Notes: generated from the letters alone by a model not told the origin. 64,000 bases of DNA from Erythrobacter sp. (GCA_013822695.1 PNKW01000005.1:1863-65862), one strand, 5' to 3'; positions 56,312-64,000 are shown, counted from the stretch's first letter. A program made the numbers and translations.

Positions 56312-57295
56312 ATGACTGCCCCCGACGCCTCTCCTGCCCCCAAAGGCCTGATCGGCCATACCGGCTTTGTCGGGGGCGCGTTGCTGCGCCAGACGCATTT
56401 CGACGCGTGCTACAACAGCGCGAATATCGGCGAGATCACGGGCGCGCGGTTCGGCACGCTGGTTTGCGCTGCCGCACCCGGATCGATGCTTGAAGCCAAT
56501 CGCGCGCCTGACCGCGACAGGGCGGCAATCGACGCCCTGATCGCGCGGCTCGAGACGGTGGAGGCGGAGCGCTTCGTGCTCATCTCCTCCATCGCGGTGT
56601 TGGCGGACTTCGCTGGCGGCGATGACGAGGGCTCGAGCGCGTTCCAGCACGATCTCGCCTATGGCCGACACCGCCGCGCGCTCGAGGCCTTCGTCGAAGA
56701 CCGCTTTCCCGGCAGCCTCGTTGTCCGCCTGCCCGCGCTGTTCGGCGCTGGCTTGCGCAAGAATTTCCTGTTCGATCTGATGAACCCCGTCCCCTCGATG
56801 CTGGCGCAAGCCCGGCACGCGGCGCTGCTGACCGCGCTGGGGGGCGATCTGGCGGCGTGGCTGGCGGCGCTCTACGCGCCGGATCCGGCGACGGGGCTGC
56901 TCAAGCTTGATCGGGCTGCGCTCAACGCCGATCAGCGCCGCGCGCCGCTGGAGACCGCGCTCGATGCGCTGGGGGCGAGTGCGACCCAGTTCCACCACCG
57001 CGAGACGACCTACCAGTATTACGCCATCGACCGGCTGTGGCAGGATATCGGCATCGCGCTTGAGGCGGGTCTCACCCATCTCCACCTCGCCCCCGAGCCG
57101 CTCGCTGCCGCCGATATTCACGTGCGGCTGACGGGCCGGCCCATGCCCGAGACACCCGCCCGTCTCCACCGCGAGGACATGCGCACGCGCCACGCCAGCC
57201 TGTGGGGCGCGTCCGGCCCCTACCAGGTCGCCGCCGCCGACACGCTCGCGAGCCTCGCCGCCTTCTTCGCCAGCCAGCGCGGGGGAGCGGCATGA
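56312..57295 (+). CDS. Atypical NAD(P)-dependent epimerase/dehydratase
   Basis: LIGHTGFVG, FVLISSIAV, YGRHRRALE (YxxxR) and VRLPALFG..RKNFLFDL. Confidence 0.8.
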   Translation: MTAPDASPAPKGLIGHTGFVGGALLRQTHFDACYNSANIGEITGARFGTLVCAAAPGSMLEANRAPDRDRAAIDALIARLETVEAERFVLISSIAVLADFAGGDDEGSSAFQHDLAYGRHRRALEAFVEDRFPGSLVVRLPALFGAGLRKNFLFDLMNPVPSMLAQARHAALLTALGGDLAAWLAALYAPDPATGLLKLDRAALNADQRRAPLETALDALGASATQFHHRETTYQYYAIDRLWQDIGIALEAGLTHLHLAPEPLAAADIHVRLTGRPMPETPARLHREDMRTRHASLWGASGPYQVAAADTLASLAAFFASQRGGAA

Positions 57296-58137
57296 AGCTC
57301 TCCATGTCCAACATCGCGTGGCTGCCCGAAGAGCGCCTTGAGGCCTATGCCATCCTTGCCGAGGCAGGCTTCACCGGGCTCGAGATCGCGCCGGGGCTGT
57401 TCTTCCACGCGGCCGAGGACCCCTTCCTCCCCGACACCGCCAGCGCGCGGGCTGCGCGGGTCGAGATGGCGGATGCGGGACTTAGCCTTGTCTCGATGCA
57501 GTCGCTGCTGTTCGGCGTCACCGGCGCGGCGCTGTTCGAGGGGGCGGACGCCCGCGCCGCCTTCGAGGCCGGCATGCACCGCGCGATTCGCTTGGCCGAG
57601 CGGTTCGGCATTCCCAACCTCGTGTTCGGCTCCCCGTTGCAACGCCGCGTGCCCGAGGGGATGGCGATGGAAGGCGCATGGGAGCAGGCCGCAGAGGTGT
57701 TCCGCAAGCTCGGCGATGCCGCTGCTGCCGCCGAGACCCGCATCGCGATCGAGGCCAACCCGGCGGCCTATGGCACCAATTTTCTCAACACGCTGGATCA
57801 GGCGTTGGGCTTTGTCGATCTCGTCGCGCATCCCGCCGTTGTGCCCCACCTTGATCTCGGGGCGATGCACATGAATGGCGACTTCGCAGGCGTGCCCGGC
57901 CGCCTCCCTGCGCTGACCCCCCGCCTGTCGCACGTCCATGTCAGCGAGCCCGACCTCGCCCCAGCGCCCGCCGATCCGGCTGCGCTTGCTCCTGTGCTGG
58001 GGGGCCTTGCCGCTGCCGGATATGCCCGCGCCGTCTCGATCGAGATGAAGCGTGCGCCCGAAGGTCTCGCCGCCGTGCGCCGCGCGGTTGCGGCGCTCGC
58101 CGCGGCGCGTGACGCCATGGAGGCCGCCCATGCGTGA
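57292..58137 (+). CDS. Sugar phosphate isomerase/epimerase (xylose-isomerase-like TIM barrel)
   Basis: SNIAW, GLEIAP, LVFGSP..R, IAIEANP..YG.NF, HVHVSEP and SIEM metal-ligand pattern. Confidence 0.85.
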   Translation: MKLSMSNIAWLPEERLEAYAILAEAGFTGLEIAPGLFFHAAEDPFLPDTASARAARVEMADAGLSLVSMQSLLFGVTGAALFEGADARAAFEAGMHRAIRLAERFGIPNLVFGSPLQRRVPEGMAMEGAWEQAAEVFRKLGDAAAAAETRIAIEANPAAYGTNFLNTLDQALGFVDLVAHPAVVPHLDLGAMHMNGDFAGVPGRLPALTPRLSHVHVSEPDLAPAPADPAALAPVLGGLAAAGYARAVSIEMKRAPEGLAAVRRAVAALAAARDAMEAAHA

Positions 58138-62371: not shown

Positions 62372-62754
62372 GCGAGCTCGTCCGCTTCTTCGCGGTGACG
62401 GCGCTGGGGGTGATCCTTGACCTCGCCATCGCCTTTGCGCTCCACCAATGGGCGGGGGTTCCGCTGTGGCTGGCGGCGGCGGCGGGCTTCTGCATCGCGG
62501 CGGGGGCGAATTACGTCATCCACCAGACGTGGAGCTTTCGCTCCGGCCCGCTCTCGGTGAAGCGCGCGGGGCTCTATGCGGTGGTGGCGCTCGTGACGCT
62601 GGCGGTGCGCGTGGCCATTGTCGCGCTGCTTGACCGGGCGCAGCCCGGAGCGTGGCCGCTTGCGGTCCTTGTCGCAGGCGCGGGGGGCTCCTTCTGCGTC
62701 AACTTCGTGCTTTCCAAATGGGTCGTCTTCGCGCCCGAGGGGGAGCGGTCATGA
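62368..62754 (+). CDS. GtrA family lipid-linked sugar flippase
   Basis: LVRFFAV..G..LDLAI, ANYVIHQTWSF, NFVLSKWVVF; 4 TM. Confidence 0.9.
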   Translation: MSELVRFFAVTALGVILDLAIAFALHQWAGVPLWLAAAAGFCIAAGANYVIHQTWSFRSGPLSVKRAGLYAVVALVTLAVRVAIVALLDRAQPGAWPLAVLVAGAGGSFCVNFVLSKWVVFAPEGERS

Positions 62755-64000
62755 CCATGCAGCCGCCCCCGATCCTCGACGATGCCGCATGGGAGGTGCC
62801 CGCCCACGAGGCCGCGCTCTACGGCCCCCACCAGCACCGCCATGCGCTGGTCATCCCCGTCATTAACGAGGGCGAGCGGATTCGCGGCCAGCTCCGCCGC
62901 ATCGCCGCCGCAGGTCTGCCGGTCGACGTGGTGATCGCCGACGGCGGTTCGACCGACGGCTCGCTTGACGCTGACTTCATGGCGGCGGTCGGCGTGCGCG
63001 CGGTCTTGACCAAGACCGGCCCCGGTAAGCTCTCCGCCCAGCTGCGCATGGCCTATGCCTGGTGCCTCAAGCAGGGCTACGCCGGGATCGTCACCATCGA
63101 CGGCAACGGCAAGGACGGGGTCGAAGCGGTTGCGGCGATGGTCGCCAAGCTCGAGGAGGGCTGCGACTATGTGCAGGGCTCGCGCTATCTGCCCGGCGGG
63201 GCGGCGGAGAACACCCCGCTCGAGCGCACCATCGCCAACCGCCTGATCCACGCGCCGATGCTGAGCCTTGCCGGGCGGCACTGGTTCACCGACACCACCA
63301 ACGGCTTCCGCGCCTATTCCGCGCGCTATCTGCTGCACCCGGACGTGCAGCCGTTCCGCGAGGTGTTTTCGGTCTATAACCTGCTGTTCTATCTGACGGT
63401 GCGCGCGGGGCAGCTGGGTCTCAGGGTCGCGCACGTGCCGGTCGAGCGGCGCTATCCGGACGACGGCAAGGTGCCGACCAAGATCGGCGGGTTTGCCTCC
63501 AAGCTGGCGCTGCTGAAGGAGACCTTTGTCGCCGCAACCGGCGGCTACACGCCCGACTCCGCCGTGCGCCAAGCAAGGTGGCTGTGGCCGGTGGCGGTGC
63601 TCGCCGCGCTGCTGGCGGCGCTGCTGTGGAAGGTGATCGCTGCGCCGCCTTTTTCGCCCGACTCATGGGCGCTGTGGGAGCTATCGCAGACGGTGTTCGG
63701 CGATTTCTACCGCTTCACCCATTGGCGCTCCTATGCGAGCGACCTGCCATACGCGTCGAGTTTCCCGCCGCTGACTCCGGTGCTGATCGCTTGTATCGAC
63801 GCGCTATTGGGGACAGGCCCGCGCACTGGCCTTTACCTCGCCTTTGCGGCTTTCGCGGGCTTCGCGTTGGTCTCGGAGGCGATCGGGCGGCGGGTCACGG
63901 GCGCCGCATGGCTGGGTCTGGGGGCGGCGCTGGTGCTGCTCATCGGCCCCAACATGCTGCTGATCGAGATGCAGGCGGGGCGGACGATCCCGCTGCAACT
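62751..64000 (+). CDS. GT2 polyprenol-phosphate glycosyltransferase fused to a membrane GT-C-like domain (runs off right edge)
   Basis: Manual translation: LVIPVINEGERI, IADGGSTDGS, TIDGNGKD (DxD-like), QGSRY, DTTNGFRAYS. The frame continues without a stop into WLWPVAVLAALL..FSPDSWALWE and further TMs. Absent from the ORF track. Confidence 0.85.
   Translation, partial: MTMQPPPILDDAAWEVPAHEAALYGPHQHRHALVIPVINEGERIRGQLRRIAAAGLPVDVVIADGGSTDGSLDADFMAAVGVRAVLTKTGPGKLSAQLRMAYAWCLKQGYAGIVTIDGNGKDGVEAVAAMVAKLEEGCDYVQGSRYLPGGAAENTPLERTIANRLIHAPMLSLAGRHWFTDTTNGFRAYSARYLLHPDVQPFREVFSVYNLLFYLTVRAGQLGLRVAHVPVERRYPDDGKVPTKIGGFASKLALLKETFVAATGGYTPDSAVRQARWLWPVAVLAALLAALLWKVIAAPPFSPDSWALWELSQTVFGDFYRFTHWRSYASDLPYASSFPPLTPVLIACIDALLGTGPRTGLYLAFAAFAGFALVSEAIGRRVTGAAWLGLGAALVLLIGPNMLLIEMQAGRTIPLQ

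Follow-up and report, generated by a model that had tools for sequence, protein, structure and literature searches.

Gene content and layout of the locus

This study concerns seven genes, g1 to g7, situated at the end of a 64,000-nucleotide stretch of Erythrobacter sp. DNA (the whole of which we call the window), which covers bases 1863-65862 of contig C5 in a draft genome of 3.16 Mb with 66.7% guanine plus cytosine (GC). The genes are plus-strand open reading frames (ORFs) that run from position 56312 to 1,075 bp past base 64000, where the window ends, and according to our analysis they form a candidate system for glycosylation outside the cytoplasm, which would possess a sugar-tailoring branch of its own. 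Near-identical DNA comes mostly from drinking-water and freshwater metagenomes.

The first gene, g1 (56312-57295), encodes a Rossmann protein of 327 amino acids (aa) that resembles extended short-chain dehydrogenases/reductases (SDR), and is followed by g2 (57292-58137) for a 281-aa xylose-isomerase-like TIM barrel, by g3 (58130-59149) for a 339-aa protein with a predicted GtrB/ArnC fold, and by g4 (59149-60303) for a 384-aa DAO-family oxidoreductase dependent on flavin adenine dinucleotide (FAD). Next to these are g5 (60296-62371), whose 691-aa product is modelled as a GT-C-fold glycosyltransferase, g6 (62368-62754), encoding a small 128-aa membrane protein of the GtrA family, and g7 (62751-64000, the window end cutting the gene), in which a GT2 domain is fused to a membrane domain; complete on the contig, g7 has 774 aa (12614-14938 of the retrieved locus L001). 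Neighbouring genes overlap at all six junctions, as ATGA at g1/g2, g5/g6 and g6/g7, by 8 nt at g2/g3 and g4/g5, and as TAATG at g3/g4, so that the seven ORFs with overlapping stop and start codons, described in an earlier reading made from the sequence alone (the sequence-only reading), were all found as claimed, g7 extending beyond the window.

Families were assigned by Pfam and NCBIfam searches of g1-g7, in which neither a sugar kinase nor a nucleotidyltransferase was detected among the seven proteins. No paralogue of any of them was found elsewhere in the host genome. Promoter and terminator scans gave nothing upstream of g1 or downstream of g7, and such scans are uninformative in an alphaproteobacterium of 67% GC. 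Two RNA-labelled sequencing runs, X25 (a biofilm metatranscriptome) and X26, gave short contigs without differing letters over window positions 58451-60604, and those of X26 cross the g3/g4 and g4/g5 junctions; the type of both runs is guessed and carry-over of DNA is possible, and we regard these contigs as compatible with co-transcription and do not count them as proof of it.

Membrane transferase-like proteins

The protein g5 has no sequence match in Pfam, NCBIfam or, by phmmer, in the PDB, and no Pfam or NCBIfam match was obtained for any of 44 diverse members of its family (g5 and 43 relatives), which is a large one, with 689 clusters at 50% identity, 393 of them at E <= 1e-10, in an exhaustive HMMER search. 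Its nature is indicated by the fold. An AlphaFold (AF2) model built on a diverse alignment reached a predicted local distance difference test score (pLDDT) of 93.6 and a predicted template-modelling score (pTM) of 0.93, and in a Foldseek search of the PDB the top nine matches were all GT-C enzymes (AglB, ArnT, AftA, PglB, AftD, ALG3), among them AglB at E 1e-5 and ArnT at E 4e-5 with template-modelling (TM) scores of 0.42/0.51 and 15% identity, followed by unrelated transporters at low probability. From this model we assign g5 to the GT-C-fold glycosyltransferases as an unnamed family, in agreement with the sequence-only reading, which had called the 691-aa protein GT-C-like.

The membrane domain of g5 comprises about 13 helices. 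Across the 44 relatives, which reach down to 17% identity, Asp42 is kept in at least 90% and Gly43 in all; in the model these two residues open a helix (43-55) of the first outer loop, directly after the first transmembrane helix (12-35). Further conserved motifs are PGxS..R, WSND and QxWxF. The C-terminal part of about 150 residues is beta-rich, possesses two invariant cysteines and matches carbohydrate-binding modules weakly, which would be compatible, by analogy, with a periplasmic glycan-binding domain like those carried by GT136 and Emb/AftD (PMC11127046). In Rhizobium sp. CSW-27, Sphingomonas montanisoli and Oceanicaulis distant relatives of g5 stand by themselves, and the genes next to them gave no hint of an acceptor.

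The other polytopic protein, g7, begins with a soluble GT2 domain (residues 1-268), which matches PF00535 with 25-27 bits against a cut-off of 23.3. Its NCBIfam matches, AglJ and PpgS, score about 40 bits and stay well short of the cut-offs (for PpgS, E 4e-10 and 39.6 bits against an equivalog cut-off of 370), and its PDB match is the dolichol-phosphate-mannose synthase 5mlz (E 1e-5). At the position expected for the DxD motif there is an invariant D117-G-N-G-K-D122, in which the second Asp is replaced (N119). The C-terminal part is predicted to cross the membrane about 11 times and ends in a small periplasmic domain. An invariant SPDSW loop (Asp304) follows its first membrane helix, and weak matches to PMT_2 were obtained in two of 13 orthologues (best E 3e-4) and one database homologue.

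A comparison of this C-terminal part with the g5 family in hhalign gave a weak match (E 5e-4, probability 31%) in which four motifs are collinear, namely GD/DG, (A/P)G(R/N)(T/S)..PL, NRFD/WSND and PQ(V/I)xxG(Y/H)xxxxY, the last of which is invariant in both proteins (346-356 in g5, 604-615 in g7). Since the motifs are shared and collinear, the two membrane domains may be old paralogues, and the membrane domain of g7 is probably a distant paralogue of the g5 GT-C, as judged by sequence comparison. When family profiles of g5 and g7 were run against the PDB, only the GT2 part of g7 was matched.

The GtrB-fold protein and GtrA

Like g5, g3 has no match in Pfam or NCBIfam, nor in the PDB by phmmer, and all 120 homologues listed for it are unnamed or called hypothetical. 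The AF2 model, built from 23 orthologues (pLDDT 75.8), shows a GT-A domain, juxtamembrane helices and a two-helix transmembrane hairpin at the C-terminus. Foldseek ranked ArnC first (9b77, E 1e-10, TM 0.62/0.67), together with GtrB (9nyc, 9nyd, 5ekp) over about 325 columns, the ArnC and GtrB matches ranging from E 1e-10 to 1e-7 and from TM 0.5 to 0.7, and dolichol-phosphate-mannose synthase after them. No similarity between g3 and the GT2 domain of g7 was detected by hhalign, and the likeness of g3 to GtrB thus rests on the fold search.

Magnesium and uridine diphosphate (UDP)-glucose are held in GtrB through D94, D96 and Q98 (PMC12698845). The corresponding residues of g3, in a register counted from the conserved G97-D98 of the sequence pattern, are N104, E106 and M108, and they vary between orthologues (N/H/Q/A/S at 104, E/D/S at 106, M/I/V/L at 108), E107 alone being invariant. 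The sequence-only reading had spoken of a degenerate GtrB, and this description fits what the model suggests: a full-length GtrB/ArnC fold in which the DxD/Gln metal motif is not conserved. Many Arg and Lys residues are invariant and a PGWLTT hairpin is highly conserved, which would leave room for binding of the polyprenyl phosphate head group. A distant homologue of g3, in the alphaproteobacterial genome G573 discussed below, is a Pfam-positive GT2 (PF00535, 47.6 bits).

The assignment of g6 is by Pfam, where residues 6-121 match GtrA_DPMS_TM with 67 bits over positions 1-117 of the 117 in the model; on these grounds g6 is a putative flippase or synthase partner.

The putative redox and epimerase trio

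Three proteins of the operon, g1, g2 and g4, have neither a transmembrane segment nor a signal peptide. The match of g1 to Pfam Epimerase, 20.8 bits, lies just under the cut-off of 20.9, an orthologue in the distant genome G550 reaches 34 bits, and a phmmer search of the PDB with g1 gave no sequence match. The protein has a GxTGFVG nucleotide loop and a conserved Ser, and in place of the YxxxK of SDR enzymes it carries an invariant Y117-G-x-x-R121, found also in orthologues at 36-46% identity. It would be logical to suggest that g1 is a putative NAD(P)H-dependent keto-sugar reductase.

The TIM barrel g2 matches Pfam AP_endonuc_2 with 87 bits, and its nearest relatives in the PDB are D-tagatose, L-ribulose and D-allulose 3-epimerases. 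In the alignment to D-tagatose and L-ribulose 3-epimerases g2 retains IEAN, HLD, HVHVSE and SIEM, that is, the Glu-Asp-His-Glu positions which we take to be the metal-binding and catalytic tetrad of ketose 3-epimerases. The scores against NCBIfam equivalogs are far under their cut-offs (IolO 36.6 against 300, psicose 3-epimerase 22.9 against 300). Putatively, g2 is a metal-dependent epimerase that acts beside a keto group.

The flavoprotein g4 belongs to the Pfam DAO family (64.8 bits; the only other families matched are Pyr_redox and NAD_binding_8), with weak NCBIfam matches to oxidases of the glycerol-3-phosphate and L-2-hydroxyglutarate types, and its homologues in four distant genomes introduced below (G550, G573, G811 and G1045) share 44-57% identity with it. 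Dehydrogenases of the DAO type typically work at membranes, where they oxidise a secondary alcohol beside a phosphate or a carboxylate, and g4 may be considered a putative dehydrogenase that produces a keto intermediate. The mycobacterial pair DprE1/DprE2, to which the sequence-only reading had compared the FAD and NAD(P) enzymes of the locus, is a useful analogy for such chemistry. As homology the comparison does not stand: DprE1 is a member of the vanillyl-alcohol-oxidase family (Pfam FAD_binding_4), and g4, being of DAO type, was rejected as its homologue.

Conservation in close relatives and flanking genes

Species-representative genomes were scanned with an alignment of 11 closer g5 sequences, which retrieved 44 loci. 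In 39 of them, from Erythrobacter, Porphyrobacter and Qipengyuania, the order g1-g7 is identical by tblastn with all genes, and a gene set kept in the same order across so many loci is not a chance run of ORFs. The set is complete in about 30 of the 39. The remainder are interrupted by contig ends, apart from one metagenome-assembled genome (MAG), L027. Across the family loci identity is about 49-85% for g5 and 71-96% for g4, which is the best-conserved gene of the module. Erythrobacter longus DSM 6997 and E. donghaensis DSM 16220, both non-pathogenic, are among the carriers.

The MAG L027, labelled Sphingomonas sp., has about 116 nt between g5 and g7 (12088-12204), with no GtrA gene detected there; in this lineage GtrA may be dispensable or encoded elsewhere, and a fault of assembly or binning is also possible.

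The module is accessory. Among 301 evenly sampled genomes of the order g5 is present in three, all of the same genus, to which 17 of the sampled genomes belong.

Upstream of the module in the host (52797-56169) lies an operon of an SDR, E1alpha, E1beta, a small lipoyl protein and a SnoaL-like protein, and 100 bp after g7 there is a gene for a 287-aa protein of the fatty-acid hydroxylase/sterol desaturase family (L001 15039-15902). Both accompany the module in the closest relatives only; in close relatives two genes, one of them for a TonB-dependent receptor, separate the hydroxylase from g7. Elsewhere unrelated genes replace them. In the complete Porphyrobacter-like genome G217 these encode a TonB-dependent receptor, a TetR regulator and an MFS transporter, and in E. 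longus they are two-component genes (histidine kinase and response regulator), a KDPG aldolase gene and anti-sigma genes. The upstream operon and the hydroxylase were for this reason rejected as parts of the module. As the flanks change around an intact set of seven genes, the system can be called self-contained, as the sequence-only reading had proposed.

Some neighbouring features were seen besides. One close locus (L007) has an extra minus-strand ORF of 278 aa between the upstream SDR/E1 operon and g1, and in G217 a 603-aa ORF with no Pfam match (L005 6450-8261) stands directly upstream of the module and is absent from the window's version of the locus. On the minus strand of the window, at 51949-52587, there is a gene for a SocA/Panacea-domain protein, within a low-GC stretch (51500-53000) of about 52% against 67% for the genome.

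Recurrence of the core in distant bacteria

Sampled genomes were searched with profiles and the matching regions retrieved, which revealed related cassettes far outside the family. In genome G550, from another alphaproteobacterial family, a gene for a 452-aa polytopic protein is followed by g1, g2, g3, g4, a GtrA gene and a free 278-aa GT2; here g1 is 46% identical to ours, g3 matches at E 2e-81, and the GT2 is 67% identical to residues 1-268 of g7, both ending in GGYxP. The cassette adjoins rmlA, rmlD and rmlB. In G573, an alphaproteobacterium with a genome of 1.6 Mb, the order is a g3-like GT2 (Pfam-positive, as said above, and with a transmembrane hairpin), g4, a short g1, g2, a 118-aa SMR/EamA-type protein and a 718-aa protein in which a g7-type GT2 is fused to a membrane domain unrelated to that of g7. 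In G811, which belongs to another class of Pseudomonadota, we find g3, g4, a polytopic protein, g1, g2, an SMR protein and a free GT2, and in G843 and G1045 partial copies on short contigs with g1, g2, (SMR) and GT2. The sequence-only reading had supposed a core of epimerase, TIM barrel, FAD enzyme and GT2, and such a core does recur in other families and in another class.

The g3-g4 and g1-g2 genes are always adjacent pairs in these cassettes, and it is the type of flippase and the polytopic partner that vary, the 118-aa SMR/EamA-type protein taking the position of g6 in G573, G811 and G843. The G573 fusion has a membrane part related to the polytopic protein of G550, so that lineages differ in whether the GT2 forms one chain with its polytopic partner or the two are encoded separately. 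Of 400 Pseudomonadota sampled, about 1% gave a strong match to g1.

Two observations may be added here. A locus of genome G942 (L058, 8486-11069) has a g4-like gene (27% identical), g1 and g2, with no g3 or soluble GT2 detected nearby, and may represent a different use of the redox trio. In the host itself, contig C2 (34930-35790) encodes a second GtrB-type GT2, 25% identical to the g3-like protein of G573 (E 3e-14), and this similarity suggests that the host may have a canonical polyprenyl phosphate sugar synthase besides the module.

These distant cassettes bear on how many sugar donors the module may handle. One could suppose two parallel lines, in which g3, as an active but unusual synthase, feeds g5 while the GT2 of g7 feeds its own membrane domain, and the trio tailors one of the two sugars. 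The operon does encode two GT2-type proteins and two polytopic transferase-like domains, the fusion of GT2 to membrane domain in g7 is suggestive of channelling, and the g3 homologue of G573 still scores as a Pfam GT2. However, G550 and G811 keep both GT2-type proteins with one polytopic partner only, so that two GT2s do not imply two transferases; g5 relatives, close as well as distant, stand alone with no g3 nearby; and g3 is devoid of the DxD and Gln through which GtrB binds Mg-UDP (PMC12698845). We regard the two-line scheme as improbable.

The same genomes also help to judge whether the genes deliver a sugar to an acceptor at all, or whether the product is a free glycolipid or the enzymes serve turnover, by oxidation, beta-elimination and reduction as in the cleavage of 3-keto-glycosides. 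Pathways of the latter kind employ the same trio of an oxidase, a xylose-isomerase-like TIM barrel and a reductase, and in Erythrobacter no genes for acceptor synthesis lie beside the module. Catabolism, though, needs no coupled GtrA, two GT2-type proteins and GT-C; the best alignments of g2 are to epimerases, whose two catalytic Glu residues it retains; and the G550 cassette adjoins the rml genes of a polysaccharide locus. A role of this sort appears to us very unlikely, and delivery of a sugar by an extracytoplasmic glycosylation system is what we consider in the following.

Possible acceptors

LpxC was not detected in the host genome, which is 100% complete, while control genomes do score in the same search; the host presumably has no lipopolysaccharide (LPS), as is to be expected of Sphingomonadales whose outer membranes carry glycosphingolipids. 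The lack of LpxC argues against LPS as the acceptor, and both the LPS O antigen, which is the classical Gtr target, and lipid A were rejected for this role. The beta-rich C-terminal domain of g5 makes a glycan the probable acceptor, the candidates being glycosphingolipid head groups, exopolysaccharide and glycoproteins. That the added sugar could alter phage receptors, as the sequence-only reading had suggested, is purely speculative.

Proposed mechanism

Taking these data together, we on balance favour a reading of the operon as an extended three-component glycosylation system of the Gtr/Arn type, which acts outside the cytoplasm and has its own sugar-tailoring branch. Those points of the sequence-only reading that computation can address were borne out or lean in its favour. 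The soluble GT2 of g7, probably aided by g6, would transfer a sugar from its nucleotide donor to polyprenyl phosphate, a role for which we count that the nearest relatives of this domain (AglJ, PpgS, dolichol-phosphate-mannose synthase) are polyprenyl or dolichyl phosphate sugar synthases. A hydroxyl of the sugar would then be oxidised to a ketone by g4, most plausibly on the lipid, with g3 holding the sugar at the membrane; our best guess for the site is the C2 hydroxyl next to the phosphoester, by analogy with DprE1 and glycerol-3-phosphate oxidase. Oxidation at C2 would give a 2-keto/3-hydroxy motif, which is the type of substrate of ketose 3-epimerases, and the metal-dependent g2 could invert the neighbouring carbon before the SDR-like g1 reduces the ketone, which would leave the sugar epimerised at C3, or at both C2 and C3. 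The remodelled lipid-linked sugar would be flipped by GtrA, and g5 and the GT-C-like membrane domain of g7 would transfer it to one or two acceptors in the periplasm or at the surface. Of this scheme, the analysis itself provides the conserved gene set, the folds of g5 and g3, the tetrad retained in g2 and the domain families, whereas we infer in what order the steps occur, that tailoring takes place on the lipid, which carbon is attacked, and what the sugar and the acceptor are.

In its most specific form, the scheme says that the cassette edits the stereochemistry of a hexose on polyprenyl phosphate, the DAO enzyme introducing a keto group at C2 (or making a 3- or 4-keto sugar), the TIM barrel inverting the adjacent centre, the YxxxR protein reducing the ketone, and the GtrB-fold g3, with its nucleotide-sugar site lost, serving as a dock that presents the lipid-linked sugar. 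We put this forward as a tentative possibility. Epimerising of polyprenyl phosphate sugars ahead of flipping and transfer by a GT-C enzyme has its precedents, the only ones known to us, in DprE1/DprE2 and in the ORF13 SDR of Citrobacter (PMC11127046).

The trio might instead work earlier. With the same transfer machinery, the cytoplasmic product of g4, g2 and g1 could be a rare nucleotide sugar (or a sugar phosphate) that is finished prior to loading, with no editing on the lipid. All three proteins are soluble by prediction, free ketoses are the substrates of the known g2 relatives, and most rare sugars of bacteria are made at the level of nucleotide sugars. Yet the module has no nucleotidyltransferase, kinase or mutase by which a free sugar could be activated, we know of no DAO-type flavoenzyme in pathways of nucleoside diphosphate sugars, g4 always adjoins the membrane-anchored GtrB-fold g3 in the distant cassettes, and g3, having no nucleotide or metal motif, is a better fit to the binding of a lipid-linked sugar than to a second synthase. 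We find a purely cytoplasmic pathway rather unlikely. Tailoring on the lipid seems likelier because the module does not include an enzyme for activation of free sugars, because DAO-type dehydrogenases typically act at the membrane, because g4 is always paired with g3, and because g3 resembles a GtrB in which the lipid side was kept and the nucleotide side lost.

Several points weigh against the favoured reading of a Gtr/Arn-type system with on-lipid tailoring. For none of the seven proteins is there a homologue with an established substrate. The soluble proteins g1, g2 and g4 are linked to a lipid-linked substrate by gene order alone. The metal motifs of both GT2-type proteins are non-canonical (N-x-E in g3, D-G-N in g7), which makes it ambiguous which protein loads the carrier and from which donor. 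The minimal cassettes of distant bacteria hold two GT2-type proteins per single polytopic partner, a ratio that the simple scheme does not explain, and the MAG L027 seems to do without g6.

Relation to known systems

The architecture of the operon is familiar, and the tailoring branch is the new part. A full-text literature search returned papers on Gtr, Arn, DprE and pentofuranose systems and none on the seven-gene set. Closest in plan are the GtrA/GtrB/GtrC systems for O-antigen glucosylation of Shigella and Salmonella phages and their Gram-positive counterparts (GtcA/CsbB/YfhO), where the same combination of GtrA, the GtrB fold and a GT-C protein is found, with the same logic of loading polyprenyl phosphate, flipping and transferring outside, and with a conserved synthase and flippase next to a variable polytopic transferase. 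The operon differs from them in that its GtrB-fold protein has no DxD/Gln motif, that it encodes an additional soluble GT2, joined to a membrane domain, and that an FAD oxidoreductase, a TIM barrel and an SDR-like protein are added; besides, the host presumably has no LPS and the operon is not prophage-borne.

In mycobacteria DprE1/DprE2 work with the GtrA-like Rv3789 and the Emb/Aft GT-C enzymes, the same association of a flavoprotein oxidase and a reductase with a GtrA-like protein and GT-C transferases. Here g4 is of the DAO family, g1 carries YxxxR versus YxxxK, a TIM-barrel epimerase is added, and the carrier would be loaded by a GT2-type enzyme, whereas the DprE system relies on a UbiA-type synthase dependent on phosphoribosyl pyrophosphate (PRPP). 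Stereochemical editing of a sugar on the polyprenyl phosphate carrier has its precedent in DprE1/DprE2 (PMC11127046). The aminoarabinose system (ArnC, ArnD, ArnE-F, ArnT) offers another parallel, as ArnC is the best structural match of g3 and the sugar is modified on undecaprenyl phosphate, through deformylation by ArnD; Arn, too, combines small SMR-type flippases with a GT-C, and the distant cassettes swap GtrA for an SMR/EamA-type protein. The chemistry proposed for the operon is, in contrast, redox and epimerisation, the host presumably has no lipid A, and the likeness of g5 to ArnT is at the level of fold only.

The pentofuranose system of Citrobacter youngae O1/O2, with PPPRS, a MATE flippase, GT136 and the ORF13 SDR, is the case in which an epimerase diversifies a lipid-linked donor (PMC11127046). 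Its GT136 is a GT-C with a C-terminal carbohydrate-binding domain, comparable to the beta-rich C-terminus of g5. In 2024 its authors were aware of no other epimerases in side-chain glycosylation systems (PMC11127046). That system makes its donor from PRPP and employs a single SDR epimerase and a MATE protein, whereas the operon has a GT2, a trio of enzymes and GtrA.

In Mycobacterium tuberculosis PpgS (Rv3631), Rv3632 and Rv3779 form a route through polyprenyl phosphate N-acetylgalactosamine, with a soluble GT2, a GtrA-like protein and a GT-C. The resemblance to the operon, going by the roles generally ascribed to this system, is in the soluble GT2 without a transmembrane segment standing together with a GtrA-like protein and a GT-C, and the difference is that no redox enzymes take part in the PpgS system and that g7 scores far under the PpgS equivalog cut-off.

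Significance

Lipid-linked sugar donors are usually viewed as plain copies of the nucleotide sugar, and the exceptions known to us are few, namely DprE1/DprE2, ArnD, NaxD and the Citrobacter ORF13 SDR. If our reading is true, a flavin oxidase, a TIM-barrel epimerase and a reductase within a Gtr-type system would widen this short list. Should the tentative, most specific form of the scheme hold, the chemistry of DprE1/DprE2, itself a drug target in tuberculosis, would extend to sugars loaded by a GT2 and to double epimerisation.

It would also suggest functions for families that have no annotation, g1, g3 and g5, the last with about 690 clusters at 50% identity, and g3 may be taken as a test case for a pseudo-enzyme with the GtrB fold. 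The cassette is compact and self-contained, and hence amenable to deletion and reconstitution. For the bacteria themselves, possible products under the most specific form would include allose, altrose, gulose or idose on the surface of a sphingomonad free of LPS, and rare sugars would be expected in envelopes that were never analysed chemically, such as those of the LPS-free, glycosphingolipid-bearing Erythrobacteraceae of drinking water.

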